Part shown: piece by piece, positions 9,227 through 63,802 of the stretch
How the letters are laid out: each line of letters opens with the position of its first letter
Position numbering within the stretch: the first letter of the stretch is position 1
Origin: Eledone cirrhosa
Taxonomy: Eukaryota
Direction of reading: 5' to 3'
DNA: 64,000 nucleotides
Assembly: GCA_964016885.1 (NCBI GenBank)
Contig: OZ024745.1
Span: forward strand, 36,084,001-36,148,000
Program-made: the position numbers and the translations under genes
Notes under the pieces: model-generated
Databases searched by the model: none
Told to the model about the DNA's origin: nothing
Seen by the model: the letters and a program-made list of their open reading frames with translations, nothing else

Positions 9227-9746
9227 TAATATGTGGTGACAGTCAAGTTTGCAATTTTCAACTGTAATAAGATGGGTAAATTTTCTACCTTTTATACATT
9301 TTATACAGGGAAAAGTGGCTCCAGAATCCTAAGTCTTGCAAACTGTATTTCGACCAATCAGTGTGTAGTTTCACTTAATTACTAAAGCTGATTGGTTTAA
9401 GCGTCACGGCTGGTTGAGCATGTCTAACGACCAATAATTAATCATATCCAAAGCATCAATTGTTTGGCTATTTTTAGAAATGATGAAAATAGCATTTTCT
9501 ATTAATCGTGATGATTAATAGAAAATGCTATTTCCATCATTTCTAAAAATAGCCAAACATTTGATGCTTTGGATATGATTAATTATTGGTCGTTAGACAT
9601 GCTCAACCAGCCGTGACGCTTAAACCAATCAACATCACTTTTATTATTATTATTATTGTTGTTGTTGTTGTTGTTGTTGTTTTTGGTGGTGTTGTTGTTA
9701 GTGGTCGTAGTCATAGTGATAGTAGAAATAATATCCCTAAGCGTTA

Positions 9747-12155
9747 TTATTGTTCATTTAGCTTGGGTTTGAATTTATCAATACAATTCTTTTCTTTGAT
9801 TTTTCTCATGATTTCACTTGGGCTGTGTAATTTGTAGAATGGGAATATTATAAATATTCCCTGACCACATGTTGCTAGATGGTTACTTAGGGGTATCTCA
9901 CGGACATTTGGGTCTCTGATTTGTTGACGGTGTACCCGTGCATGTTCCGATAGTGCATTTCCAGTTTGACCGACATATAGTTCTTCAGAATGCGGGCATT
10001 TAATGCAGTAAATTAGATTTCTGCTTTTGCAGTTCATATTTGCATTTTGGAATATTTTTCCAGTTTTTGTTTTCATATATTGACCGGCGTGTATGGATTG
10101 ACATGTGCCGCATCGACTATCATTGCATTTAGATACAGTGAATGATTGGTCTTTGTTGTTAAGGTCAAATTTGCTTTTGTTAGTAATTGCTTCAAATTTT
10201 TTGGCTGTCTTTTACTAAGAGTCAAAGATCGATCTGTGATTAAGCCTTTTAATACATTACTTTGAGCAATGATCGGTAGGTTTGCTTTGGCAGTGTTAAG
10301 ATATTCTGGTGACATGGGTTGTGTGTCATTATAAATGGTATGACCAGTTCTTGGTTTCTTCTTCCTTGGGTTGTCCTAAGTTGTTTTATAGGTATATTTA
10401 TAGCCCGCTGTATGCCATTTTCTATAAGTAGAGATGGGTATTTTTGTTTGAGCAAAAATTCTCTTAGTTCTGTTAGACGTCTGTACCTGGTATTCGTATC
10501 TTCTACAATGGTACAAATTCTTCTGGCTAGGCAGTATGGGATGTTGCGTTTTGTATGAGGTGGATGGCACGACTTAAAATTCAGATATTGATGGGTGTCT
10601 GTGTGTTTATAATATATATCCGTGGTAATGGTGGTGTCGTTTTTGATTATCATTATATCTAGGAATGGTAAGTTGGTCCTACTCATCTCTTTTGTGAATT
10701 GAAGAGATGGATGTAGGTTATTCAGGAGGATATTGAACTCATCCAGAGTATCTAGAGATTCTATCCAGATGATGAAACAGTCGTCAAGGTATATCTTCCA
10801 AGATTTTTCAATGTACTTTCTAAAGTCAGTACTATATTTTTCCTCTATTTCTTGGTAGAGTTGTTGTTCTAAGTATCCCATTACAGAGTTCGCGTAAACG
10901 GGAGAAAACTTCGTTCCCATCGCTGTGCCTCTAATTTGGATGTAATTCTTTCCATTGAAGAAGAAAGTGTTGTTTTCCAGAATAAGTTTAACTGCGCCTA
11001 ATATAAATGGCGCTGTGAATCTGATGGGAATCACTTCTCTATGTTTTTCCACCCAGTATTTAACCGCCTTTATTCCTAAATCATGTGTAATGTTGGTGTA
11101 AAGGCTTACCACATCAAAACTGAGTAGAAGTGAATTGGTTTCCGTGGTTTTGGGAAGATGGGACAGGAAGTCGATATCATCCCGGATGAAACTGGGTATG
11201 TGAATACATAGTGGTTTCAAAATAATTGTTTCTACTTTAGGCACAAGGCCAGCAATTACCCAGTGCATTACTGGTACTTTATTTTATCGACCCCGTAAGG
11301 ATGAAAAGCAAAGTCAACCTCGGCGGGATTTGAACTCAGATCGTAAAGGGACGTAACTATGCTGGAAAGCATGGCGTGCGACCCTCTACTGATACTGCCA
11401 ATCCACAAAATAATGTCAACAAAATTGCTTAGACGGTGGGTGGGGCATGTTGGACCAGCTATAATAGGTCTAAGTTTTAAGTCTTTTGGGTGTAATAATT
11501 TAATGTACTCACTGTTTTGTTCTCTTACTGCCAGTTGTATTTCTTTTGACTTATGAACTTTCCGTAGGCCATACAGGTTGCTGGGTTTCGGCTCAAAATT
11601 GGTGATGTAGTCTCTTTCCTTATCAGTAAGTGAGTTGTGGTATTTTGAAGCCAGGTTGTTGATCTTCTTCATAATGTTGTGGTCTATATTAGACGGTATT
11701 TAATGATAGAATGTTGTGTCTTTCAGTTGTTCCTCAACCAAATCCTTGTAGTATTCAGTATCAATTATAACAACTGCACCCCCTTTATCTGCTTGTTTAA
11801 TTATTATTGTTTTATCATTTTGTATACGTTTAAGTGCAGACATTTCTGATTTGTTAATGTTTGGCCTAACATTAGTATTATGTCTAAGAGGAAATTTAGA
11901 CAGGATGTCATTGTATTGGTCGAAATAGATATTTCTTCCTTTTGGCGGAGTGAAATTTGATTTATTCTTTACTAGTGATTCATCACTCTCATTACTTTTA
12001 TCAGCGAAGAATTCTACAAGACGTAATTTTCGACAGAATTCTTGGGTATCCTCCTTCAGTTCTTGGTGGTTGACTGTTGGAGTCGGTGCGAATTTCAGTC
12101 CTTTTGACAGAATTTGCATTTCATCATTGTCAAGATCTCTTTTAGATAAATTAAT
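9747..12155 (-). pseudogene. Neptune RT + GIY-YIG ORF, frameshifted and SINE-interrupted
   Basis: IINLS, KQADKGGAVV, LRPIIAGP, FDVVSLYTNI, GTAMGTKFSPVYAN, YLDD, RCGTC linker, LIYCIKC..LYVGQT. Confidence 0.93.
11227..11405 (-). mobile_element. SINE inserted in the Neptune RT
   Basis: Same SINE as 7204. CAAAATAAT is duplicated at 11218-11226 and 11406-11414. Removing the insert restores NFVDIILKPLC. Confidence 0.93.
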
Positions 12156-12689
12156 TATCACTATGACTACGACCACTAACAACAACAACAACAACAACAG
12201 CAACAACAACAACAACAACAATAATAATAATAATAAAAGTGATGTTGATGGTGATGATTAATAGAAAATGCTATTTTCATTATTTCTAAAAATAGCAAAA
12301 CAATTGATGCTTTGAATATGATTATTTATTGGTCGTTAGACATGCTCAACCAGCCGTGACGCTTAAACCAATCAGCTTTAGTAATTCAGTGAAACTACAC
12401 ACTGATTGGTCGAAATACAGTTTGCAAGACTTAGGATTCTGGAGCCACTTTTCCCTGTATAAAATGTATAAAAGGTAGACAATTTACCCATCTTATTACA
12501 GTTGAAAATTGCAAACTTGACTGTCACCACATATTATGAACCTGAAGATTGCGAAAGCATGAAAGTACTTCTTCAATTAACACTTAGAATTTAATATTCT
12601 ATCATACTATTTCATTATAATACCATTATAAATTTTAAAGGATTGTAAATAAAACGAGTAAATCAGACAAAGTTGGAATTCCTCTTATT

Positions 12690-13974: not shown

Positions 13975-16900
13975 GAAGAAGTCGTAGACTAATATTCTAT
14001 TAGGTGGTTCATGGAGACGTTCTCTTGCAATGAATGGAAAAATGTAGATAATACGTCATATGTGGAACGAGGAGAAGAATTGCACGCAAAGACAAAACCA
14101 CGTAAATGGTATAACTGAATTCGTAGACTAAAATTCTAACTAGGAAACCGAATGATTCTCGGCTTCAGAGTTAAGAATAAAGTAAATAAAATACAGAGGT
14201 AATTGAAATAAATAAATACATACACGCATCCATATACGTACATACACAAGCATACGCGAAAACACTCGCCATAGGTATACAAATACAAGCACGTACACAA
14301 ACAAACCCGCACGCACATACAGAACCCACGCAACACCTGTACCCGCACACATACGAATGTATACACCAAATACACATAAAAATGTATATAAATATATATA
14401 TATATATGTGTGTGTTCGTATAATTAAATAAACGTATATAAATAAATAAATACGTATATAACGCGCGCGCACACATACCGTCATGTAAAACACATATGTT
14501 CGGAGACCTACGTCAACCAAAACACAAAGTACACATATACACACACCCTACATACGTACGAACCCGCATACTCACACAGACGCAAAACTCGCGTATACAC
14601 ATAACCAAATGCGTATGTACCAGAATATATAATATATACGCCATAACATATACAATCAAATACACGTACGAGAATGTTTACGTACCTTCACAAAACATAC
14701 AGGTAATATATACGTACCTATACAAATAAGTAATGTTATAAACATAACATATATTTAGCTATCACATCAATGCGTAAAATATCCGCTTATAGTTCGTACT
14801 ATCCGTTAGGGTATAATGTAGGGCTGTAATACAGGAGAGTTTTGTGTAATTTATGTTTACAAGCTGAAATTGCTTCAGACTTTTTGTTTAAGATGTGGTC
14901 TTTGGCGTAGAGTATATCCAGGGCCTCAGCGGCGGAGAGGTCACATTGTCTTTTATTTCCGTTATACGATCTAGCCTCAGCTAGGATCTCCCAGTGTAAC
15001 TTATATTGGGTGTGGTTTTCTTTTAGACTCCAGATATAAGCTGAAAGTGACGTCATATTCCTTCATAAAGGGTTAAGAAAAGAATGGGTATGCATGTAAA
15101 GATGCTGCTTGAATCTATTGGCAGTTAACCCTATAAAGGCCCTACGGGCCGTGGGTGTTTCTACTTTACATTTGTAGACAATGTTACTAGAGAGGCATTT
15201 CCCGGATAGGGGGCAGTCAACCCGATTCCTACAATTACAGTTAGTACTAGCTACAGGGTTGCACGTGTTCCTACGGCTAGGTAGTTTAGCTAAATTTGAA
15301 GCTGTGATATTATTTGCAAAGTTAGGAGTCGTAGAGTAAGAAATTTTAATGGTATTTCTATTAAAAATGTTACTATATTTATGTGCTGGGGGAAAATGCT
15401 TCACAATAAGGGAGAGAAAGATATTAGCTAAAGGTGTGGCCACCTCCTTATTATATGGTGGGTTATACCATATAATGCGTCGGGATCTATTTTTCTAGGT
15501 CTATTCTCGTACTCTGTATATGCTACCTTATCGACAAATACACTCCGAGAAAGAGCTTCATTGTAATATGTGGAATGGTCGTTGAAAATATGCTCGTTAG
15601 TAGATAGACGGGAAAGCCTCAAAGAAACGTTTCTTACCAGGTTCTTGGTTATGCTGGCAGGAGGGTTAGAATGCTTACTTATGTAAATAAGCGTATCACT
15701 CGGCTTTCTATACGGGTAGTGCAAGCCATTCGACAAATTGAGAGTAACATCGAGGTAATTAACAACCGAGAGGTTGGCCTCAACCTGTATGGAGAGGTTG
15801 AAGCCTTTAAAGAAGGCTGTGAGTTCTTTTCTGAACCTGTCGCAAGCACGTGGGCCGCACTTTGTCATGGTCAAAAGACCATCATCACGGTACAAACCAC
15901 CGCCCATGTTGGGGAATTCTTCCTTGATAGACAAAAGAAGGGAAAGGCCGATAAGATCAGTAACCTCCGCAAAATCGCTGGCGCCCATACTCAAGTCGAA
16001 TGGGGTACTATTATATTTTTTAATTCAAATAGAGTCGTCGAAATTAAACACCGACTTACGCGCATTGAAGATGACATCAACTTCGAAATCCTAACCACTG
16101 TGAATGTTTTAGCGAAATTGATAGCTCTAAGGAGAAGTGCTAAAGTGATGGAGGAGTAGTAATTATTGATGTCGAATTGGATAAAACGGCAATGTTCCTT
16201 GTTGCATATGCCGTTGAACCAATCAATCACCGCGAAAGAATTGTTACATGGTGCAAGAGCGACCAAACTTCTAATTTCATGTATAATTCTATCTAAAATC
16301 CTTTTATTAAGTCTACCTAAATCTCACTTCGTAGGGTTAATAAGCCGAATAGAAGGGCTGTTCGGGAAATTGGATTTGTGATCCTTCAGGGTAAAGTGGG
16401 GCGAAATAGGGTCCAGAGGTTCAGGCCAGGATGTTCAGATCAGAGGTGATTTTAAGCCCAGCATCGTTGATTTCATTAATGACGCTCCGATTAGTTTTAC
16501 GGTAATCCTTAGTTACAGCATTATGTAGCAGTTGATAGTAAGTACTGCGCTCCACTTGATATAGATTGCCAGTTTTGTCGGGATGGACGTGCACGGCATT
16601 AGAATCCTTAATAGAACGAATTCTATTCTTCGGGTCCTTGGAAGGAATTGCTCCTATTCCGAAATTTGATACTCCGTATGAGTTCCAAGAGATCATTTTC
16701 GAAGGGTAGAAATGCTGGGTTACTCGGAGGGTTATTATAGGTTTTAAACCCAAATTTATCCTGTTTCTTGTCTGCTTTTCCCTGATTATTGAAATAAAAG
16801 GCACGCCAACACAACCTTTTAATGAATGCGTCTGTTTTCTGAATCAGGAGTTTTAGGTATGTTTTCCTGCATGGTACGGGTATGTATTTTGTAGAAATAT

Positions 16901-17594: not shown

Positions 17595-18268
<674 letters not shown>

Positions 18269-18296
18269 GTATGTATGTATATATATATATATATAT

Positions 18297-19330
18297 ATTG
18301 CAGTGTTTAGGCAACCACGTTACCTTTTTATACAACACTGACACAGGAGCGATGTACTAGTTTCAAGCTTATCAGCTATCGTCAGCATCGTATACCTTCC
18401 TGCCAGATGGTTGAACGTCTGAAAGTATATACTTTCCTTATGCATATTAACGGCTGAGCAGCCTAATTTGCATATCGAGTGAGTTCAGTCGGCCGGGCAC
18501 ACCGAAAACGATAAATGGAAAAAAATGAAACGAAATTTAATTTCTCACTCTTAGAACGGCACTTACTTACTTGTAAGTATTTATGTATGTATACGTACAT
18601 ATATATATGTATATAGACGTTCGCCTCAGCATGGCCTCAGCCGGATGGCTGAAACAGGTAAAAGAGGGTAAAAGAGAATATATACATGCACACATATATA
18701 TATGCATGTATCGGTTTACCGAAAATTCATTATAATGCTCGGTTTGTTTGTTTGTAAAGAAACAAACAGCCCGAATTACGCCACGTCACCATTTTATTCA
18801 ACACTGACACAGGAACGATGTACTAGTTTCAAGCTTATTAGCTATCGTCAGCATCGTATACCTTCCTGTCAGATGGTTGAACGTCTGAAAGTATATACTT
18901 TCCTTATGCATATTAACGGCTGAGCAGCCTAATTTGCATATCGAGTGAGTTCAGTCAGCCGGGCACACCGAAAACGATAAATGGAATAAAATGAAACGAA
19001 ATTTCATTTCTCACTCTTAATACGGCACTTACTTACTTGTAAGTATGTATGTATGTATACGTACATACATATATGTATATAGACGTAGAGTAGTATGTAT
19101 ATATATATACATGCACACATATATATATATGCACGTATCAGTTTACCGAACATTTATTATAATGCTCGGTTTGTTCGTTTGTAAACAAACAAAGAGCCCG
19201 AATTACGCCGTACAGTGTTTAGGCAACAACGTCACCTTTTTGTTCAACACTGGCACAGGAACGCTGTACTAGTTTCAAGCTTATTAGCTATCGTCAGCAT
19301 CGTATACCTTCCTGCCAGATGGTTGAATGT
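18297..19330 (-). repeat. ORF-less tandem array (~446-466 bp unit) with 3 hammerheads
   Basis: HHRs at 18350-18390, 18816-18856 and 19262-19302: CGATG-CTGACGA-T-AGCT....AGCT-T-GAAAC-TA-GTA-CATCG. Confidence 0.85.
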
Positions 19331-19391
19331 ATTTATATATATATATAAATATATATATGTAAATATATATATATAAATATAGATATATAGA

Positions 19392-24680: not shown

Positions 24681-24731
<51 letters not shown>

Positions 24732-24823
24732 GTATATACATATATATATGTATATACATATATATATGTATATATATGTATATACATATATATACATATA
24801 TATATATATATCCATATATTTAT

Positions 24824-24879
<56 letters not shown>

Positions 24880-25021
24880 GTGAGGTTTTTTTTACAAATT
24901 GAAAAATAACCGAGGTGTCCTACACGAGTGAAAGTATAAAGAAAAAGAGATGAAATCGAAAATGCAACTGGAGTCTTATTTATTTATTTATTTTTTTAAA
25001 ATATATATATTTATTTGGTTC

Positions 25022-25057
25022 CTTTACCGGTTTCGCAGTTCTTCTGCTTTTCAAAAG
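25022..25057 (-). ncRNA. Minimal hammerhead, U3-A8 core variant (second copy 30016-30051)
   Basis: CTT-TTGAAAA-GCAGaagaaCTGC-GAAAC-CG-GTA-AAG with palindromic ACCGGT. Confidence 0.65.
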
Positions 25058-25566
25058 TAGAGTTGAGATGGAGGGTTTGTGGTTTTTCTCACATCTGGTT
25101 GGTCTCTGAATGTTACTTGTTTTATATGGAAAAAGTGGCTCGAAATGATAGGTTTTTCAAGAAGTAATTTGATTGGTTGGTCATTAATTATAATAAATTT
25201 CGCGTTACAATGGTTCTTCAAATAAGAGGAGGGGGGGGGGGGTCATAGGTTTTTTTTTCATATACGAGTGTTTGAATTTCTTTTTACTTGAAAAAAAGGG
25301 GCTCACGAAGGCTTTTTTGGGGGGTGGTTATAAATGAAATTATGACTGCCACGTGAACAAGTTTTCATTAAATTTTCGCGCCGTTATTTGGAAATCCATT
25401 CTGTAACCGTTTTAGAGAATTTTATGATAAGTGAAAGATAATGGTCAAGAGAAATGGGATGGGAGAATTGTTCTGGTTCAGTGAATATGGTTAGTTCGCT
25501 GGGGTGTCAGAATTCAGATTTTCTATTGAATAAAGAAAGTAAAGATATGTATGTTTATTTGTGTGC

Positions 25567-25651
<85 letters not shown>

Positions 25652-25916
25652 GTGTGTGTGTGTTTGAATTTCTTTACTTAAAAAAGGTGGGTCACGAAGG
25701 CTTTTTTTTAATAAACGTGATTTGATTGGTTATAAATGAAATTTGTCAGTCTCTTGAACAAGTTTTCATTACATTTTCGCGCCCTTATTTGGAAATCTAT
25801 TCCGTAGCCTTTATAGAGAATGTAGCCTTTATAGAGAATGTAGCCTTTATAGTTCTCTGGGGTGTCAGAGTTCAGATTTTCTATTGAAGTAAAGATATGT
25901 ATGTTTATGTGTGTGC

Positions 25917-26434: not shown

Positions 26435-28755
26435 TTAAACCATATTTAATGCTGGTCTATATTTTTGAATAAACATATTTTCCTTATTTATTCGTATTTG
26501 TTCTGTTGTATTGTTAGCGCAAAGGTAAAATGGGAAGACTTGGAATTTGGGTGTCTTATTACTTGCGCAAATGTCTAGATGTGCACTTAGTGGTATCTGT
26601 CTCGTGGTTGGATCTCGTAATTGTTGGCGATGAACTGTCATTCTGTTTCTGAGTGTGAGTTTAGTTTGTCCTATATAATCTTCATTGCATCCTTTACATT
26701 TAATGGCATAAATTAGATTTTTTGATGAGCAAGTGAAGTAATTTTTTACAGTAAAATGTACACGTGTTGCCTTCAATGAGGTGAGTGCAGGTTCCACAAT
26801 TAGAACGACCACATTTTTTGATACTTGGTTGTGGGTTTGTGGTAGGTAATTTGGCATTGGTGAGTAATGTTTTCAGTGATTTTGGTTGTCTTTTGCTTTT
26901 GATTATTTGTGTGTTTCAAGGGCTTTTTTCATTCTTGGGTTTTGTTTTATTAGTGGGATGTTCTTGTGAATAGTGTTGTAAGCTTCCGCATTTCTTGGGT
27001 TGTGTGTTGAGATATATGATAGAATATTGGACGTACCTTGAATTTGTTTCTGTTTCCGTAATTCATCAATGCCTATTGCTTTAGCCTTTTCTATTCCATT
27101 ATTTATTAGTAATAGTGGGTACTCTCTCTCGAGTAGAATTTCCTTTAATTCTTGAAGTCTTTTATTTCGCGTTTCATAATTGGAGACAATTGTGCAAATT
27201 CTTCTTGCTAGGTTAAAAGGAATGTTCGTCTTCGTGTGCTTTGGATGGTTGGAGGTGAATAGCAGATATTGTTTGGAATCTGTTGGTTTGTAGTGTATGT
27301 CAGTTTCGATATTTGTGTCTTTTTTTAAGATTAAGATGTCCAGAAACGGGAGTTGATCTTGGCTGTATTCCATTGTGAAATGGATGTGGTTATTGATGCC
27401 GTTTATTAAGTTTTTGAAATCCTTCAGTTGGTCGAGTGTGTGGGACCAAAGAATGAGACAATCATCCAAGTAGCGTTTCCAATTCTCTGATAAATATTTG
27501 TGGAAGTTCAATCCTTATTTTGATTTGGACTGTTCATATATCTGGACTTTTAAGTATGCCATAACTAAGTTGGCATAAGTTGGAGCGGCTTTTGTACCCA
27601 TCGCAGTCCCCGATATTTGCTTGTAAGTATTGCCATCGAAATCAAAAAAGTTGTTCTGTAAGATGAATTTTAATCCCTCGGTCATGAAGCTTTTTTCTAT
27701 TCTGTCAGGTATCTCATTGGGATATTTCTCTAGCCAGAATCCTATTGCTTCTAGTCCGTATTGGTGTGGGATCGTTGTGAAGAGATTCACTACATCGAAA
27801 GACACAATAATAGTGTCGTTGTTGACATGTTTGGGGAGGTGGTTTAAGAGGTCCAGATCGTCTCTTACAAGGCTTGGTATGTGTTTGAGAATTGGTTTCA
27901 ATAGTATGTCTATAAAGTTGCTCAGTCTGTGTGTTTCACATTGTGGGCCCGCTACAATTGGTCTTAATTTAAGGTCTGTGGGGTATTGTGTGTTCACGCA
28001 GGCTGAGGTGGATTGTTTAAAGGCATCGTTGATTATTTTACACTTGTGGATCTTCGAAAGTCCGTAAAGGTTGCTGGTTTTGTATTCAACATTTGTTAAA
28101 TAATCGCGTTCCTTTTTAGTTAGGTCTTCCTGGTATCGATAAATCAGTGTGTTTAATCTGGTCATTATTTTTGATTGCTGGTAGTTTGTTTTACTCTTTC
28201 ATAGTAATTAGTATTTTGTAAGAGAGAGAACATAGAATTTTTATATTTTTCAGCCTCCATAATGACAACAGTACTTCCCTTGTCCGCTTCCTTAATTATA
28301 ATGTCCGTATTGTTTTTTAGTTCATGGATAATCTCCCATTCCCTTCGACTCGTTTTGGGATTGGGTTTAGGTTTCGGTAGTTCATGGTATGGGAAGGTAG
28401 CTATGTGGTCACAAAGTTTGTCCAGAACTCTGTTTCTACCTTTTGTTGGGTTGTAGCTGCTTTTATTCCGTACAATTGATTCGTCGTTATTCTCCTTGTC
28501 AAAGAATTCCTCTGTGAGACGTAATTTTCTACAGAAGTGTGAGATATCGTCATTTATCTCATTGGGGTTAGAGTATTGTGGTGTTGGTGTGAATTTCAGT
28601 CCTTTGGAGAGAATTTTTACTTGTTGGGCTGAGAGGTTTGTATTTGAAAGGTTGATTATTTTCGGTTTTTCAAAATCGGTTTGTGCCACCGGGTGTCGTG
28701 AGTCCTGTAGCCTTGGTCTAACAAATGATTTTTCTGGAATGATTTTTCGATGGGA
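26435..28755 (-). pseudogene. Neptune RT + GIY-YIG ORF (stops/frameshifts)
   Basis: KIINLS, KEADKGSTVV, LRPIVAGP, FDVVNLFTTIP, GTAMGTKAAPTYAN, RYLDD, LIYAIKCKGCNEDYIGQT. Confidence 0.94.
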
Positions 28756-29850
28756 TTATTATATCTAATGCTATTTACCCTGTTGTTGTGTGGTCTTGTA
28801 TAGAAGTTTCGGACGTATTGAGGTTCGGTTTGTTGATAGTCCGGGTTGTAGATTGTGTTCCTTTGTGTGGGTTGGGATCTACGGTTTCGGAACAGGCTCT
28901 ATGTGGGCATGGGGTCTACGGTTTTGGAATAGGTTTTGTGTGGGTTGTGATCTGCGGATCAGGTCCTGCCTTGTGTTCGGGGATCTTTGGTTTTTGTTAG
29001 TAGGGTTATAGTTTTGTCTATGGTTTCTGGGATTATCGTTATAGTTTTGCTGTTGGACGTTTTGTTACCTTTTTTGTTATCTGTTGTGCATGTGGTGTGT
29101 GAGTTTTAGTTTGTTTTAAAAATGGGTTACGTGTATGTTGTTCATTTTTGAAGTCCATTTCGTAGTTGTTGAACCAGGTGGCGTTTTTTCCCATCGCTGG
29201 AGGGATGTTAGTTCTTCATCCGCACAGTTTTCTTTCCAAAGTTTTAGGGGTTTTTTGTAGAGTAGGCCTTTAGAGTGCTTTGAGATTTCTGTGTCCATCT
29301 GTTGGTCGAGTGACTTGAATTTTTCTTCGTTGGAGTTGGCTCTCAATCGCAACAGTTCTATTTCTGTTTTAAATTTTTCCAACGCCATCTTTTCCCTAAG
29401 TCTTTTTTGGTTTTCTGGTTCATTCGGGATGGGTTTTATTTGGAGTTTTTTGGGGAGGATGATTGGGGTAGAGTTTAGCCACTTTTCATATATGTCTGCC
29501 TTGCCATTATTTTTTAGGAGATTCCAAAGGGCGAATTTGCGGGCTGTGAGCTTTTGAGTCCATATGTTGATTAGGGTGTTTTTCACTGAGTGGACATCTG
29601 GTAGATTGGGTTCTAACGGTTGTTCCAGCTTTTGGAGCATTGCTGTTTCAATGGTTTCGATTAGCTTAGTTAATACTGGAGTAATATTCGTCTCTTGGGT
29701 ATTTTCTGTTTCTTCGTGGGGTCCTTTTTTATAGATGTGTATTTGGTCCACTTTGTTGGTCAAAATTGAGAGCTTAGAGGAAATCTCTTTGAGTTCATTT
29801 AAGATGTCCTGGTTCAGTGAGTTGTTGTTTTGTTGAGACTTTGGTGGCAT
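28656..29850 (-). pseudogene. Upstream ORF1-like region of the Neptune PLE (helical/coiled-coil domain + N/Q/R-rich tail)
   Basis: ATG at 29850 lies just inside the 5' pLTR boundary, followed by a 244-aa open segment. A frameshifted continuation ends ...NHLLDQGYRTHDTRWHKPILKNRK* at 28656. Confidence 0.7.
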
Positions 29851-30378
29851 TTTCGGTCTTCGTGTGGTGGGTATATATTAGAAAATGTGGGTTTTTTTAC
29901 AAATTTAAAAATAACCGAGGTGTCCTACAAGAGTGAAAGTATAAAGAAAAAGAGATGAAATCGAAAATGCAACTGGAGTCTTATTTTTTTTTAAATATAT
30001 ATATTTATTTGGTTTCTTTACCGGTTTCGCAGTTCTTCTTCTTTTCAAAAGTAGAGTTGAGATGGAGGGTCTGTGGTTTTTCTCACATCTGGTTGGTCTC
30101 TGAATGTTACTTGTTTTATATGTAAAAAGTGACTCGAAATGCTAGGTTTTTCGAGAAGTAATTTGATTGGTTGGTCAATAATTATAATAAATTTCGCGCC
30201 AGTTCGCGTTACAATAGTTCTTCAAATAAGAGGGGGGTGTCACAGGTTGTTTTTTTCACATATGAGTGTTTGAATTTCTTTTTACTTGAATATATATATA
30301 TATATATTTCGTTTCTGAATTTCGTTTCTGAATTTGTTTACCAAGATTCTCATTGGCAACATCACACTCCCAAAGCAT

Positions 30379-33749: not shown

Positions 33750-35850
33750 TTACAAAGAATCAGTCCGGAGCCTTGTAGTTATGCAATAGATGTTTGGTGA
33801 CGTGTGGGCATCGTGTGAAAAATTCACTCTTGTGTTTAGGCAATCACTATTGCGTAATCTCTTTAGGATATTTATTCGTTCGTCAATACATAAGCTACAC
33901 GTCGGATTTCCCCTTGCGTATGGCTTGGACTTACTGATGGATTTCCATTGAATGGAGTAGCCTATAATTGAGTCCTTGAGGGACCATATGTGGCTCGCGA
34001 GTTTCGTGGATGAACGTCTGTCCGGGTATCTGAAGGTAGACTGGTGGTTCAGGAAACGCTCCTTGAATCGGCCCTCCGCCATGCCCACATAGGATTTGAC
34101 CTCCTGTGGTTCGTTTGGTCGGTTGGAAGTGACCACAGCTTCATAGATTACAGCTAGTGTGTTGCATTGCTGTTGAAGGGGGCAAGCTTCAGGCCTACGG
34201 GAAGAGCACCCTGGTGGGGTGTTGCTCCTAGGGCTGCTGGTGATGTGGGCCTTCATGTTCTTAGCGCAGGAGTATCCTAGTTTAACTTTGTGTCGGCTAA
34301 AGATGGAGCGGTATTTATGACATATGGGGAAGTGTCTATCTAAGAGGGCTAGACATGTTTTCCTACATTGGTTTTAACGTTGAGTGAGAATGGAGGAGAG
34401 AACCAGATAGTTTGTCTATTGATACACTTACTTTTCTTAATGGTGTTGTTGCTAGTGGGAGAGTAGGTGATAGGTTGTGAGAAGCCGCTGTTAGCCAATG
34501 CCATGTTATAGTAGGGTGCCGCCCTGTCAAACATAGCCTTATTAGAGGAGAGGTTTGAGATTCTAGTACTGATATTCTTAACGAAGTTCTAAAAGCAGTG
34601 GGAGGGTGGCATGAGTCCTTGTGAATGTAATTAAGTTTCTTGTTTAGCTTATGAAAGGGTCTGTGGGTGTGTGTGCGAAGGTCTAAATTAATGTCTAAGA
34701 AATCTACGCTAGAGAGTTTGGTGGCTACTGTTATCCTAAGGCCTAACTCATTGAAGCTAGAAGCTAAGTCTTTTTTAAACCGGTCGAGGTCGTGACCACT
34801 TTTATGGCTCGAAAAAGTCAGTCCATTGTCACGGTATATTCCCGTGTGGAAGGGCGGGAATCTAATACGTAATATGTCTAAGATAAACAGGCCAACCAAG
34901 TCGCATACGTCAGCACTGTCAAACGATCCCATGGAGACGTCGAACACGTCTGAAGATGTAGACTTCTTTGCCCAGGCTACTCCGTCGTTGAAGAGGATGG
35001 TTTTCCCTGTCTAAACCATCGACGGTGGTATAAGTGGTAGCGAAGTCCAACGCTTTGTTTAACACGGTCTCTGAGATCGACGGGTAAAAATCGACAATGT
35101 CAAACTGTGTGAACTTCGCTTTTTTGGAGTTTACGGAGTTAAACCACTTAATTACAGAGTCGTTGTTCTCCCACTGGGGCAGGTTGGACTTGGTCCTAAT
35201 GGTCTTAACTATGTTTCTAAGTATGGCCTTACTGACTAGTCCCATATCTGTGCGTACCGCGTTTATTAGTCTACATGTGGGGTTAGAAGTAAAGTCTACC
35301 TTGTGATCTTTCATGGTGAGGAACGCCTTCCGCTTAGCTAGAGATTGTAGCTTCCTATCTACCTTAAGGTCGGTGGCGAGTTCCTTGGCTTCTGTATTAA
35401 TGTCGTGGTAGGCCATAGTGTTAACCTTCTTATATTTATAAGTAATAGCGTTATGGGCCAGGTGGTGGAAAGTGGTGTTGTCGACTTCGTAAATATTATT
35501 AGTTTTCTCGGAAAGGACGAAGGTTTTATTAGAAGACCTAAATTTCTTAATATCGTTTCTGAGTTTCGTTTGAAAGGTGTTAGTGTGTTTGCGAAAGGAA
35601 ATGTTAGCGACTAAGTCAAGAAGGTCCGTCTCGAAAGGAGCAAGTTCGGTTACCTTAGGAGGGTAGGCTCTCGATTTCAGGTTGAAGGTGTTGTTTGTGC
35701 CTGTAATTTTGTCGTCGAAAGCTAGGGCTCGCCATATTAAGCGTCTGGCGACATCTTCCTCTTTTTGTAGGAGGAGCTTTTGGTAAACATGGTTGGAGGG
35801 AGTTGGAATGTTCTTCAGGGAGTAATTCAGTTCGTATAAATCCATACTGA
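33750..35850 (-). pseudogene. Naiad RT + GIY-YIG ORF (frameshifted, catalytic DD>DN)
   Basis: LNYSLKNIP, FTQFDIVDFYPSI, FDVSMGSFDSADVCDLVG, YRDNGL, YVGMAEGRFKERFLNH, CSLCIDE. Confidence 0.92.
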
Positions 35851-36240
35851 CGTTGATGAGACGCAAAATTGTGTAGGACAAGTGGATATATAGAGCGCTC
35901 TCAGGGTAGTAAGCCAAACTCGCATGTCGTGAAGAATCTGCTAAAAGCCAAACTTCTACGTAGTGAGGAGAATCTGCTGACCGGTGCTGGAGACTGGCGA
36001 GTCCTAGCTTTCGACGGCAAAATTACAGGCACAAACAACACCTTCAACCTGAAATCGAGAGCCTACCCTCCTAAGGTAACCGAACTTGCTCCTTTCGAGA
36101 CGGACCTTCTTTACTTAAAGAGGCTGCTTTCATAATTGCAAACGAATCGATTATTATCATTAATATTCAAAAAAATACATTTATTGTATTCAGCCATACA
36201 GAGCGATAACTTTTTGTTAATATTATATATATTTATATAG

Positions 36241-38595: not shown

Positions 38596-41500
38596 TGAGG
38601 CCTCATCATCGTCACCCAGTGACGATGAGGGAGAGCCTTTCCGACCAGTAAAAAGAAAAAAGAAAAGACATAACACAAACAAAAATGCAACAGACACACA
38701 AACACCAATACAAGCGACGCAAACAGCACAAACAAAAACACCCCCTCCTGAAAACAAAACACCTACTACAAAACGTAAACACACACAAGAACCACAGAAA
38801 AAAAGCAACACAACGCAACAAAAATGTTACACCTACATAAATACTAACAATAAAACTTTAACAGACACCATATATAAAATCCCTTCGGTGGAGACCGAAG
38901 GGAAAACTTTTACACACTCTGCGTAGAATCCTAATCTTAAAATGATTAGGATCTCCATGGACACACATAAACAGTTAAAAGAAAAATTTCCTAACGACGT
39001 AGGTAACCCCTGCGTCAAACCCTATAACCGCGTCCTTTTGAAATGCCCCCCCCCCCCCCACAACCCCTCCAACACCCCCATGGAAATTGTGCAGCCTGGT
39101 CCCCAGGAGACGAAGAGGTGAGTGATTCTTTTTCCTCTTCTTTTAACTTTTCGGCACCAACATGGCCAATATAAGAGTTCGATGTGTGAATGTACGCGGC
39201 CTGGGGATGCCCTGGAAACAGGGCAAACTCTTAAACGACCGCAGGTCGCACAGTATGGATGTAGTAGCCATTTGCGAAGCCAAGATCCACAGCGAGCGAC
39301 AACTGGCCCCATCTTCGACGACTTTGAGATCTACGCATCTCTCTGTCAGCCGGGTGGTTGGGGTGGGGTTGCCACTTTGCTGCGGAAACACCTGGACCTC
39401 GTAACACAGACGGTACATCTAGACCCAGAGGGTCGACTGGTGGTTCTAGACGTTGACGGTAGTGAAGGTGGAGCCTTCAGGCTGGTGGCCGCATATGCCC
39501 CATACGGGATACCGCGGCCAGACTTCTTCAAACGTCTAGAGACTTTTCTGGAAACGTCTCGCTCCCTGCTATTAGTGGGGGACTGGAATGGAATCCTAGA
39601 TGCACGTTTGGAGTATGTGGGAGCATGTACGGATAGAGGGGGAGCGGGTGTAACCGCCTCAAACAGTTAATCGGCCGATTTGACCTGGCCGATAGATATC
39701 GACTAGATTTTCCGACTGTGCCACTGTGGACGTAAACTAATCGTCGCGGAACATCTAGATCGTACCTAGATATGGTTCTATTTAGAAAGAAGGATAGGGA
39801 CATGTTAAGCTGTCCACAAATGTTCATGGTTGCCTATTCAGATCACAAATTAGTGACCTGCTCAGTCAACCTGGTCAAAACCCATAGACAGGGACCCGGC
39901 TACTGGAAGCTGAACTTGTCGTTACCGACATGCAAAGCCTACAGTAGACCGATTAGCACTTTAGTTAAGCACCACTTGACGGGGGCCGTTGTCAATAACA
40001 GATGGTGGTACTCTCTCAAGAGGGCAGTTAGATTAGACTCGATAGGTTTTAGTAAATAATTAGTGTTAGATAAAAAAAGACCGAAAAAGAACTGGTAGAT
40101 TAAGTAGAAGAGGCACTTAGGAGTGGCAACATAGCCAGCTTGCGAGCGACAAGAACGGCCTTGGACCAGTTCTTCGACGCAAAGCATGAAGGCTGCGTTG
40201 TCAGAAGCAAAATACGTGCTCTGGGAAACGAGGGAGCCAAAGCTGTTAGCTGGGCCCGAGTGAGGGAGGCTAAAAGTGGCAACAAGTCCACGATTCGCTC
40301 TTTGAAGGACCAAGACGGACGCGTGATACGTGAGCCGGAGCAGATGTGCGCGGCCTTTCAGTGGCACTTTGCTCAACTGCTCGAGCAGGGCGGCGCGCTG
40401 AGCGGGAGGGTGCTATGGATTTCGGTCCATACCTCGACGGCCTACCGCGACTCTCGGACAGCGAGGCGAAGTTCTGCGAAAGGCCGATTTCGGCCGCTGA
40501 GATAGGGGACGCGCTGAGCCTATGCGGCAAAAGCAAGTCTCCAGGTCTTGACGGTCTACCCTACGAATTTTACGTAGCAATGCCGGACTTGTTCTCCGGT
40601 CTCCTGGAAGCGGTCTACTGCAATTGGCAGCAGAACGGGAGAATTCCCAGTTCTGTGACCAAGGGCGTAATCACGTTAGTCAGGAAGGACGAGAACAAGG
40701 GGGATGACATAGGCAACTTCCGGCCCATAACTCTGCTCAACACAGAGTTACAGATTTTGGCCAAGGTGTTGGCAAAGAGGCTGGCGCTTGTCGTCGAAAA
40801 CCTGGTGGGAGAAGCGCAGACAAGCGCAATCCCGACCAGGTCCATACACGACAACCTCCACCTCATGCGATACATCATAGAGAGGGTAGGGTGTAAACCC
40901 AGCTTCGGTGGGGCCCTGATCAACTTGGATCAGTCTAAGGCTTTCGATAGGGTTGACCATCGTTACCTGGATGCGGTGCTCGAGGCGGCAGGCTTCGGTC
41001 CCGTGTTCATGGGCTGGATTGCTTCAATGCAGAACAGCAACATCTGCTCAAGGGTCAAGATGAACGGCTACCTCTCGGAGCCGTTCCATATCACGCGTTC
41101 CATCCGATAGGGATGCCCTCTCTCCTCCCTTCTGTACGTACTGACTCTCGAGCCACTACTGCGGAAGTTGGAGCTATTGCAGGGCATCCATTTGGAACCG
41201 GGACTGCGAAAATCGGCGTCGGCCTACGCCGATGACGTGACAGTAATGGTGTGGAGCACCTCGCAAATCGGGGAGTTCGGCACGTTACTGGAGGAATACG
41301 AAAGGTTCACAGGACCGAAGCTGAACGCGGACAAATCCGTCGGTTTGCAACTCGGAACGTAGAGAGGCAAACCGATGCCTTCCGATGACGTCGTCGGACG
41401 CTGGACGGAAGGACCCGTAAAGCTGTTCGGGGTCTGGTTTGGTCCTGACCTCCAGGTGGAGAAGAACTGGAACGAGGTGAAGGCCAAGGTGTTTGCGCTC

Positions 41501-42852
41501 ACCCAGAAGTGGGCCGACTGCAAACTATGCTTGAAAGGTCGAGCGGAGGTGGCGAACACTTTTATAGCGTCCGTCATCTACTACCACTTGACCGTTGTGC
41601 CTTGTCCAGCCAAAACGTTCACCAAAATGGAGCGCGCGCTCCTCCAATTCCTTTGGAAGAAACGGGCTTCTTTGGTGAGAAGATCCATCTGCTGCCAACA
41701 CCTATCAAACGGAGGGCTGGGGATGCCGTGGCTGACGATGCCGTGGCTGACGATGCGCAAACACGCGCTCAGTCTGCGGCACATCCACGTATTCTTCCTC
41801 AGACAACCGGTGTGGGCCCCATTCGTGAGGCGAGCCTTCCCACGATCGTCTCGCTGACCGAGCTGCAGTCCTGGGTCAAGCAATGTCCGAGGAAAATGGG
41901 CGACTGGCACTTCGAATGTGCTCAGGCGCTCTCAGTCCTCTGGCAAACGGATCCGGCGATCAGTGGAGACTCCACTTCGACATTCTATAGAGGGTTGGTC
42001 CGCAGCAAGTGCGACGACACGCTCGGAGAAACTCAAGGCGTAGAGGAGGACGAACTGGCCAGTCTGTTCGGTAGGACCTTCCGCCCGGGACTAATGGACA
42101 ACTTCCAAATGTCCCTGGCCTGGCAGTACTACCGCGGAGCTCTACCAGTTCGAGACAAGCTCTACAGACACGGGCGCCCGGGTGGGGACCCTTCGAAAAA
42201 GATCTGTCCGAGATGCGTGCGCGACAAGAAAACCGTCGCACACGCATTTGTACACGGCCCGGGCGTTACCGACCTGTGGAGCTATGTAGAAGTACTATTG
42301 TCGCGGGTGGGACCAATCCAGTTGCCCACCGAGTCCATTGTCATGATCAGACCGCCACCCTCCTTCAAAAACGAGGGAGAGGCGGTTTTCCTATGTGTTA
42401 TGGCTATGGTGAAAGAGGTTATATGGTGGACGAGGTTAAAAGGGCTGAGGTCAGAGACCTTTCTCTCCGGCAAGCAACTAATTCGTTTTTTCAAATATCA
42501 TTTTGGAAGAAGAATCAGGATGGAGAGAGAGGTGCTGTACCTCAGCAAATTTTATAAAAGGTGGGTGAATGTGGCATAGATGGCCCGAGTGGTTGGGGCT
42601 TCTCTCTATATAAGCCTGTAGGTTGAGAAAAAAGAGGAAAAGAGGAAGGGAGTACGCACTCTTGGTGCTCCTGAAGATGAGGGTTGTACATTTTTTCGGG
42701 GTGTGTACAACCCCTGTGTAACACCTCCCCCCTATTGGGAATTTCAATTGTTATTTGTTATTGTATTAATAGTTTTATTTTCATATACCTGTATGTAAAC
42801 TCCCCATTTGTATTTGTCCCCTTCTTTTGTGCCTTTGTGGCTAATAAAAATG
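38596..42852 (+). mobile_element. Tx1/L1-clade non-LTR retrotransposon, ORF1 mostly missing
   Basis: GC-rich block with AATAAA at 42843-42848, flanked on both sides by TCTA repeats. Confidence 0.88.
39162..42621 (+). pseudogene. ORF2: AP endonuclease + reverse transcriptase + C-terminal zinc knuckle
   Basis: NVRGL, YAP, GDWN, SDH, GYWKLN, KSPGLDGLPYEFY, FRPITLLN, KAFDRVDH, R*GCPLSPLLY, YADDVT, GGLG, CPRC..TVAH. Several stops and frameshifts. Confidence 0.95.
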
Positions 42853-55926: not shown

Positions 55927-55996
<70 letters not shown>

Positions 55997-58136: not shown

Positions 58137-58182
<46 letters not shown>

Positions 58183-58634
58183 ACATATACACATATATGC
58201 ATACAGGTACACATACATATATGCACGTATCAGTTTACGGACGCTTAATATAACGCCGCTTTGTTCGTTTGTAAACAAACTGAACAGCCTGAATTTATGC
58301 CATACGGTGTTAAGGCAACCACGTCACCTTTTTGTTCAACACTGACACAGGAACGATGTACTAGTTTCAAGCTTGTTAGCTATCATCAGCACCGTTTACC
58401 CATCTGCCAGATAGTTGAACGTTCGAAAGTATATACTTTCCTTATGAAAATTAACGGCTGAGCAGCCTAATTTGCATATTGAGTGAGTTAAATCGGTCAG
58501 GCATACCGAAAACGATAAATTGAAATAAAATGAAAACGAAATTTCATTTCTCACTCTTAGTATGGCACTTACTTAAATGTAAGTATGCATGTATACGTAC
58601 ATACATATATGTATACAGACGTACAGTAGCATGC

Positions 58635-58667
<33 letters not shown>

Positions 58668-59208
58668 CACATATATGCATACAGGTACACATACATATAT
58701 GCACGTATCAGTTTACGGACGCTTATTATAACGCCGCTTTGTTCGTTTGTAAACAAACTGAACAGCCTGAATTTATGCCATACGGTGTTAAGGCAACCAC
58801 GTCACCTTTTTGTTCAACACTGACACAGGAACGATGTACTAGTTTCAAGCTTGTTAGCTATCATCAGCACCGTTTACCCATCTGCCAGATAGTTGAACGT
58901 TCGAAAGTATATACTTTCCTTATGAAAATTAACGGCTGAGCAGCCTAATTTGCATATTGAGTGAGTTACATCGGTCAGGCATACCGAAAACGATAAATTG
59001 AAATAAAATGAAAACGAAATTTCATTTCTCATTCTTAGTATGGCAAAAAAAAAAAAAAAAAAAAAAAAAAGGTGACGTGGTTGCCTTAATACCGTATGGC
59101 ATAAATTCAGGCTGTTCAGTTTGTTTACAAACGAACAAGCGGCGTTATAATAAGCGTCCGTAAACTGATACGTGCATATATGTATGTGTACCTGTATGCA
59201 TATATGTG

Positions 59209-62699: not shown

Positions 62700-63802
62700 C
62701 TTTTTACCTTTCTGTCTCTCGTATATAGAAACAATCAAAATACTGGGAGATTAAGGGTTTCTGTATAACTCCCGTTATATAGGGAAAATGATAATAATAA
62801 AGATTTGAAAAAAGCGCCTATACATGCATACGTGTAGAGTACACAAAGAAAGATAATTCACATCAATAGGGATTACATTTGTATTTAATCCGTTTCGCTT
62901 ATACAGCTTTTAAAAAGTTATTTCATGTCTAATTTTGCACGATTCCATTTGTAATGTTATTTACTCTTACGTTTTTCGTAAAACACAGCAGGCTTCTGGT
63001 TGTATCTTTGCCACTTATGTCAAGAAAACTCAATCCTTTACAAGGGAGGTATATTTGGACTGACCAGGTATTAAATATTATGTGTATGAAGAGTTTTGAA
63101 AATTGAACCTTCTTTGAAGTGGAATTCGTGGCCTTCTAATATATAGTTGCACACCTCGCAGTTAGGTCGGTTGTTTCTTTTCATTTCGGATTCTTTAATT
63201 CCAGTTTGCAACTTTGCATTTGTAAGTAAGTTTTCTATATAGTATTCTTTACATTTTATAAGTGGTTATTTTTGTTAAAAGGCTTTTCATTTATTTATCC
63301 TTTGGTAGAATATGTACGTTTAGGTTGTATGTGTTTGTAGATTTCTGTGTTATTTGGGTTAAAAGTTTAAATATATATTATGAGCTTTTGTTCTTTTTTT
63401 TTTAATTTTGTTTTCGGAGTACGTGGATATTAAACTGTCTTGCTTTTTTAATCTTATTATTGATAATATTTTGAGGCCATTTTCTTTTGCTGAGTGTGTG
63501 ATCTATCTTTCTTGGTTTTGAGATTAATATGCAAATTCGCTTAGCTAAGTTAAGTGGAATATTGATACGTATGTGTATTTGGATGAGAACGTGAAACAGA
63601 GATATTGTTGTGAAATGGTAGATTTGAAATATATTTCAGTCTCTACATCTATTTTTTGTTTTGTTAATGGTATGTCTAAAACAGAAATTTTCATTTTCTG
63701 ATATCCAAAGTGAAATGGATGTTAGGTTTCATATTATTGATGAGTGTTTGAAATATCTTTAGTTCATCAAGATTTTTCGTGTGGGAGTATATGCATATAT
63801 AC

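Follow-up and report, generated by a model that had tools for sequence, protein, structure and literature searches.

Can an endonuclease-bearing Penelope-like element (PLE) carry two overlapping genes that are joined by a -1 ribosomal frameshift? The question is raised by a locus in a window of 64,000 nucleotides of Eledone cirrhosa DNA (the whole stretch analysed; contig OZ024745.1, positions 36,084,001 to 36,148,000), where such an element runs on the minus strand from about 30290 to 24700. Endonuclease-bearing PLEs are relatives of the telomerase reverse transcriptase (RT). Read in its own direction, the element starts with the 5′ part of a pseudo-LTR (29872..30290), which ends about 20 nt upstream of the ORF1 ATG and is an 89% identical direct repeat of 24867-25292; intact copies are arranged alike. 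ORF1 (28656..29850) is about 400 aa long in intact copies and is broken here. It is followed by a frame coding for RT, a Zn-finger-like linker and a GIY-YIG endonuclease (RT-EN, 26435..28725), also broken here and set in the -1 frame. RT-EN matched the Pfam models RVT_1 (E 9.5e-7) and GIY-YIG (PF01541, E 1.7e-7), the endonuclease domain with its CCHH motif occupying 26453..26719. The 3′ repeat region, including the pseudo-LTR at 24867-25292, covers 24681..25657 and is followed by (TA)n; all these features are on the minus strand. Among named proteins, those most like the RT come from octopods and are 62-75% identical. The copy itself is dead. As the initial annotation had cautioned, it has other decay frameshifts, namely six further indels within its ORFs (29189, 29052 and 28910 in ORF1; 28189, 26908 and 26757 in RT-EN), to which a stop codon near 27515 is added. 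It differs from an intact copy by 2.7% substitutions.

A six-frame reading of the minus strand bore out what had been described at the junction, apart from the size of the overlap. A stop codon interrupts the RT frame at 28758-28756, and IINLS is preceded by no ATG in that frame. The frame rich in N, Q, R and Y runs across the overlap to a stop at 28658-28656; relative to it, RT is read in -1. Positions 28725-28719 read T TTG TTA, one base off the slippery heptamer T TTT TTA, which is the family state (28719..28725, minus strand). The overlap does exist, but its size had been overestimated: it measures 91 nt in the family, not about 103. In most copies of the family the nearest RT-frame stop lies 7 codons upstream of the heptamer (window 28749-28747), where the window copy has CGA. 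The ORF1 stop, a TAA at 28656..28658, comes 20 sense codons past the heptamer and falls within the Lys-Ile codons that open the N-terminal motif of RT.

The family of the window copy, hereafter family A, was sampled by a DNA search of the genome, which gave 1472 candidates, 40 of them scored and 30 fetched. In the alignment, the overlap was free of indels in 30 copies of 30, meaning that the -1 offset is the family state. T TTT TTA was present in 29, and the exception was the window copy, which alone has T TTG TTA. The exact heptamer was found in 48 of 53 distinct family A loci, and among the 189 exact matches genome-wide to the 26 bases behind the site, 172 had an intact heptamer followed by G. 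The conjecture that offset and TTTTTTA belong to the family therefore stands. Open frames were also recovered: 5 of the 30 copies had a 409-410 codon ORF1 frame together with an RT frame in which no stop occurred before the locus ended, and three full-length copies combined a 409-codon ORF1 with an RT-EN of 771-775 codons, stop to stop. The first RT-frame ATG in family A is 465 nt past the heptamer (codon 155), behind the INLS and GLKF motifs and most of the DKG motif. Compared with family B (see below), the region ahead of this ATG is as conserved as the remaining RT. Its translation is accordingly required, and cannot come from an ATG start, which the initial annotation had named as an outcome that would refute its reading.

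Further families were sought within the same genome; one search gave family A in its top places and another gave a new family, C. Family B is represented in the window by a 5′-truncated copy (9628..12158, minus strand), cut at IINLS as had been noted, its start being at 12158. Full copies elsewhere have two ORFs, the -1 offset and T TTT TTA. Families B and C, with RT 43-53% identical, are laid out like family A. Of 30 family B loci, 27 carry the heptamer, an ORF1 of 449 aa and RT-EN at -1; the other three were the truncated window copy, one copy cut at the heptamer and one with a substitution. Against family A, its ORF1 is 28% identical and its RT-EN 49%. Family C has the same layout, the heptamer being present at 37 of its 40 distinct loci, and an RT-frame ATG lies inside the overlap. 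As read from their genomic copies, families A, B and C thus share the arrangement of two ORFs, -1 offset and heptamer. Some family C copies had long fused frames (4 of 14 fetched, these 14 being partly chosen for long frames), and 7 of 8 expansions of a C-run were +1 mod 3. These fused copies were examined as possible support and dropped, because the C-run is unstable and its changes in length favour none of the three frames: 52 non-standard lengths in the first 100 of 172 genome-wide matches were divided 13/18/21 (p 0.39). A single continuous ORF was absent as a family state, the only fused copies being accidental ones in family C.

Elements outside this genome were collected by scanning three collections for the RT motif KGLKFTPTP, blind to the heptamer. 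Among the 26 loci obtained, 17 were judged to be PLEs and 9 were dropped as chance matches (L097, L102, L103, L105, L108, L109, L116, L120 and L122; in L105 the RT score was weak, 28.6, and INLS was missing). Sixteen of the 17 PLEs had T TTT TTA (10) or T TTT TTG (6) in ORF1 phase, 102-258 nt upstream of KGLKFTPTP; the remaining one, L104, has neither heptamer nor ORF1 and was left out of the test below. An ORF1 profile scored in the heptamer-phase frame in 11 of these 16 loci, and never in the third frame. The RT N-termini of the outside elements are mostly 30-50% identical to one another. Given codon use, the heptamer spelling has a probability of 0.073 per locus, and T6 runs occur elsewhere in RT at 0.069 per 300 nt; on both counts the heptamer would be rare, so that the constraint acts on the nucleotides. 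Families A, B and C and the 16 loci make up 19 cases, which are not fully independent (L110 and L115 are related, as are L111, L112 and L117). An RT-frame stop lies in the 10 codons ahead of the heptamer in 14 of these 19, and in the 10 codons past it in 1 (Fisher p 3e-5). Third-frame stops in the same windows numbered 3 upstream and 7 downstream. The RT-frame stop touches the heptamer in 6 of the 16 outside loci, and in L106 the ORF1 stop is one codon past it, leaving about 12 nt for a change of frame. In 3 of the 16, an RT-frame stop lies between heptamer and KGLKF, which we read as decay. We conclude that the heptamer and the offset are family-wide and deeply conserved, and due neither to chance nor to decay.

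By its motifs, linker, endonuclease and pseudo-LTRs, the window element classifies as a variant of the Neptune-type PLEs. It has in common with the Neptune clade, in what PMC8557442 says of it, an RT with GxKF and DKG, the spacing of the Cys-rich linker, a C-terminal GIY-YIG domain with CCHH, pseudo-LTRs and (TA)n flanks. In intact copies the CCHH motif has two Cys between GIY and YIG, in agreement with the Neptune rows in the supplement of that paper; the linker, C-x4-CxxC with about 25 aa to the next Cys, has by eye the long spacer of Neptune and not the short one of Nematis. The pseudo-LTRs of family A are in direct arrangement. No hammerhead ribozyme was found in the repeats of family A: Rfam gave hits only in the DNA that flanks the element, and no core motif was seen in L093, a search that may miss minimal forms. 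The difference lies in gene number. Canonical endonuclease-bearing PLEs are called single-ORF (PMC8557442, for the Neptune clade as there described; also PMC6515669) and are contrasted with two-ORF, endonuclease-less PLEs in PMC6431247, whereas two ORFs were found in families A, B and C and in the outside loci, with an ORF1 of 400-450 aa that overlaps RT-EN in the -1 frame, the slippery site having a fixed place there.

The lack of an endonuclease that marks Athena/Terminon does not apply here, as a GIY-YIG domain is present. A legend on frameshifts and pseudoknots in PLEs is said to mean Athena alone. As worded (Fig. 1 of PMC8557442), this legend has the ORF1 of PLEs as possibly frameshift-separated, with a pseudoknot, and names no clade. 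The two-ORF PLEs, so far as the accounts in PMC8557442 and PMC6431247 go, resemble our elements by a coiled-coil-like helical ORF1 upstream of RT and a join by frameshift; they reportedly have a pseudoknot and no endonuclease, whereas here we have an endonuclease, a spread over many contigs, and no pseudoknot found. Other Neptunes have an extra ORF or domain beside RT-EN. The killifish Neptune repeat.CL27 has a short upstream ORF1 of 419 nt, reported as non-overlapping, and the word 'frameshift' does not occur in PMC12602865, which describes it. Neptune-like PLEs that carry an esterase are mentioned for fish and molluscs in PMC5408684; the present ORF1 differs in having no esterase match. In the article text searched, no description of a slippery site in an endonuclease-bearing PLE was found; part of the finding may be known to specialists.

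What does ORF1 encode? The protein has a helical N-terminal part of 240 aa, followed by an N/Q/R/Y-rich tail. The head was modelled as five long helices and nothing else (mean pLDDT 74), to be compared with the coiled-coil ORF1 of Athena by description only, and Foldseek against the PDB gave no fold match at E 0.001. No Pfam match was obtained for ORF1, esterase included, nor any PDB sequence match for RT-EN. A profile search yielded 922 clusters of ORF1 homologues at E 0.001 (clustered at 50% identity). In the best 150 of these 922 matches, no protein exceeds 706 aa, so none of them is a fused polyprotein. A separate search for longer, fused ORF1 proteins found none either, which is weak evidence. 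Phe-Leu, the product expected of the heptamer in ORF1 phase, was counted in the 82 full-length homologues (330-500 aa) among 155 hits, the other 73 being outside that length: in 71 of the 82 it falls within the 45 C-terminal aa, and in 2 within the 45 aa preceding these. Taking all 155 hits of any length, 90 have the motif. From its position, its modelled helices and its basic low-complexity tail, we infer that ORF1 may be a gag-like RNA-packaging protein.

The heptamer has the X XXY YYZ form, in zero-frame phase inside the overlap, and the -1 frame is open from it and closed before it, as judged by the distribution of stops given above. Programmed -1 ribosomal frameshifting is the likely mechanism by which RT-EN is reached, with a probability that we put at roughly 85% from these sequence comparisons. 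Ribosomes would slip back one base on U UUU UUA in the overlap, so that ORF1 would be made abundantly in free form and, to a minor extent, as an ORF1-RT-endonuclease fusion. Such slippage would account for the phase and spelling of the heptamer, for the opening of the frame at that point, and for the lack of an ATG. The two-gene layout with a -1 offset at the heptamer, as set out in the initial annotation, is supported; that the slippage occurs, and that the fusion is the working enzyme, we infer. The HIV-1 gag-pol -1 frameshift uses the heptamer U UUU UUA. The PLEs would share with it the heptamer, its phase, and the logic of a structural gene followed by an enzyme gene; they differ in having no stable stem-loop behind the site, and in being neither LTR elements nor viruses.

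Some features sit uneasily with frameshifting, among them the weak or missing 3′ fold, an RT-frame ATG in family C and L117, and an AG after the U-run. The best rival is a synthesis of RT-EN alone, by re-initiation or leaky scanning at an AUG or GUG in the overlap, as sole or perhaps as second route; we hold it to be unlikely. It draws on a conserved Trp in the ORF1 frame, which in the window belongs to Asp-Thr-Arg-Trp (28686..28697) and is the 11th codon past the slippery Leu. The RT-frame codon under this Trp is GTG in the window copy and family A, and ATG in family C and L117; it is ATA in 3 of the 4 outside loci whose ORF1 stops ten codons past the site. The five closest RT homologues (P0009-P0013) are also called with a start 8-10 aa before INLS, but since an M in such predictions can equally stand for a GTG or TTG start, these protein starts are weak evidence. 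Moreover no ATG is found between heptamer and INLS in family A, in family B or in 14 of the 16 outside loci, and the RT frame is open from the heptamer onward, not from the codon in register with Trp. Between families A and C, Asp-Thr-Arg-Trp is kept through synonymous changes in the ORF1 frame while all four RT-frame residues differ, and the NTG may therefore be a by-product.

The U-run followed by AG could instead be a 3′ splice site joining an upstream exon to the RT frame, which we consider very unlikely. U UUU UUA G is indeed also a good splice acceptor, the G is present after the run in families A and C and at 9 of the 10 outside loci spelled TTA, and PLEs can hold introns (PMC3846280). 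However, 8 of the 19 (family B, L098 and the six TTG loci) have the same run and phase without AG. The spliced form was also looked for in the genome: no copy had a non-T at two positions of the run before the 26-mer, to be set against its 189 matches, in a test that covers part of the possible junctions, such elements often keeping introns in their DNA copies. No GT..AG joint appeared among the 15 matches listed from four contig runs (kind unrecorded) against an intact copy, which weighs neither for nor against splicing. Slippage of RNA polymerase or RT on T6, adding a base that fuses the ORFs in RNA or DNA, has scarcely any likelihood: six Ts are the invariant part of the site and a seventh is present in 2 of 53 family A loci, yet such slippage needs no codon phase, while 19 runs of 19 are in the single phase suited to tRNA slippage, and the base after T6 is always A or G, which keeps Leu. 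As for a decay of one long ORF, suggested by the six other indels of the window copy and by the fused copies of family C, it can practically be set aside, since the offset is fixed in all 30 copies and across distant families, and the family C fusions reflect an unstable C-run.

Turning to what would stimulate the frameshift, the downstream hairpin or pseudoknot that the initial annotation expected gained no support: no fold beyond chance was found behind the site in family A or B, and z was below -2 at 1 of the 18 sites folded. Families A and C have weak hairpins and B none past the heptamer. That of the window copy (28685..28711, minus strand) starts 7 nt past the heptamer, and its role is doubtful; in family A the hairpin has about -8 kcal/mol, with z of -0.1 to -0.8 against shuffles. 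A pseudoknot was discarded after a crude H-type search, in which 174 and 122 of 300 shuffles did as well. The stimulator is then apparently not a conserved RNA fold, and the leading candidates are the slipperiness of the U-run itself and a paused or terminating ribosome about 10 codons on.

The second candidate comes from the ORF1 stop, which lies exactly 10 sense codons past the site in 21 of the 71 proteins and 4 of the 16 outside loci. In these four loci the distance from the stop to the RT motif varies from 65 to 221 nt, meaning that the ten-codon spacing follows the heptamer. On a quick tree the spacing is clustered (6 changes, 18.3 when shuffled), which points to mostly one inherited trait kept over long branches and led us to reject independent origins. 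A strict minimum of 10 codons, which the 71 proteins suggested, was also rejected as not general: shorter spacings of 1, 3, 3 and 4 codons occur in outside loci, and of 5 and 6 in the protein set of all lengths. Family A has 20 codons and family B 23. In the same quick tree the family A clade falls inside the ten-codon lineage, grouping with three ten-codon rows at support 96. Families A and C and 8 protein hits carry Asp-[Thr/Val]-x-Trp, its Trp being codon 11. Of the 61 longer tails, 9 have Trp at this codon, and no other position has it in more than 4. Within the family A clade the spacing from Leu to Trp is constant, and that from Trp to the stop ranges from 8 to 15.

A structure-free -1 frameshift driven by ribosome queueing, with a pause at a stop or Trp ten codons on, is thus a possible reading of these spacings, one that we regard as tentative. 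In one large lineage, a terminating ribosome would be parked one ribosome length (10 codons) past the slippery site; in the family A clade, an Asp-Thr-x-Trp pause would have taken the place of the stop, at exactly that distance. The ratio of ORF1 to enzyme would then be set by ribosome load and not by RNA folding. The spacing differs in many families, values of 1-4 codons among them, and the Trp may be a peptide motif of ORF1 or reflect a start codon in the RT frame. A stop-stalled ribosome raises -1 slippage of its follower in E. coli reporters, with a peak at a 9-codon spacer (PMC6815119); the likeness is a stall downstream of a slippery site, at 9 codons there and 10 here. That system is engineered and bacterial, whereas ours would be a natural eukaryotic spacing with a putative function. 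The A sites of mouse disomes are 30-33 nt apart (PMC7397865), and SARS-CoV-2 frameshifting is tuned by stop position, for which PMC8168617 proposes another route. The residues named for pausing in the portions of the literature cited are Asp, Ile and Gly.

Taken at the level of the sequences, a large group of endonuclease-bearing animal PLEs usually called single-ORF keeps two overlapping genes with a slippery site at their junction. If this holds for a broad branch, as the 922 ORF1 clusters may indicate, the catalogued proteins would be 400 residues short at the N-terminus, a family of structural proteins that has no name yet would have been overlooked, and the enzyme as it occurs in nature may behave otherwise than the bare RT-EN studied in biochemistry. 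Eukaryotes would also offer natural -1 sites by the hundreds that have no stimulatory fold and differ in their stop spacings, a panel on which frameshifting programmed by ribosome collision could be tested.

Among the 19 loci compared (families A, B and C, together with 16 outside loci of Penelope-like elements, PLEs), the slippery heptamer T TTT TTA/G of the ORF1/RT-EN overlap was followed by a G at 11 of the 13 sites ending in UUA, and by a U or a G at the six sites ending in UUG. UUU or UUC as second codon of the heptamer was found at none of the sites in this set. A second class of spacing was present in four of the outside loci (L106, L110, L113 and L115), where the ORF1 stop lies just 1 to 4 codons past the slippery site; spacings of 5 to 9 codons were absent from all outside loci examined.

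In family C, the third PLE family of this genome (copies L153-L196), the run of C directly 3′ of the Trp codon of the overlap is an unstable poly-C tract. Its length was non-standard in 52 of the first 100 copies among the matches listed, with changes ranging from -1 to +21. About one third have ORF1 and RT-EN fused into a single frame of 1140-1180 codons, and most copies with an expanded run have also lost the Trp codon.

The window holds other retroelement remnants. A decayed PLE-type RT (33750-36022 and 15428-16024, both on the minus strand) carries an RW-like motif, EKT instead of DKG, the motif MGSFD and GIY-YIG at its C-terminal end, and is similar to the Hydra clade as PMC8557442 describes it. 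A further decayed Neptune-type RT-EN fragment lies at 63085-63727 (minus strand), and a decayed non-LTR retrotransposon, matched by RVT_1 and zf-RVT, at 40334-42579 (plus strand). Bacterial genome bins and records of symbionts also contained animal PLE sequences (locus L121; proteins P0020, P0021, P0051, P0065 and P0088), a sign of host DNA carry-over into those assemblies.

Hammerhead-core motifs occur within short tandem repeats at 55996 (plus strand), 58389 and 58867 (minus strand) and 2691-2829. Tandem repeats of ∼470 nt span 18168-19379 and 58172-59096, and the ∼470-nt repeats with hammerhead cores are likely ribozyme-bearing, non-autonomous repeats. Similar Rfam hammerhead matches, scoring below the gathering score, flank the element locus L091. 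Finally, in contig runs of unrecorded kind aligned to an intact copy, the pseudo-LTR, the terminal repeat of the element, was covered over its final 300 nt (L093:2200-2520) at far greater depth than ORF1, which suggests that this part exists in many solo or non-autonomous copies.
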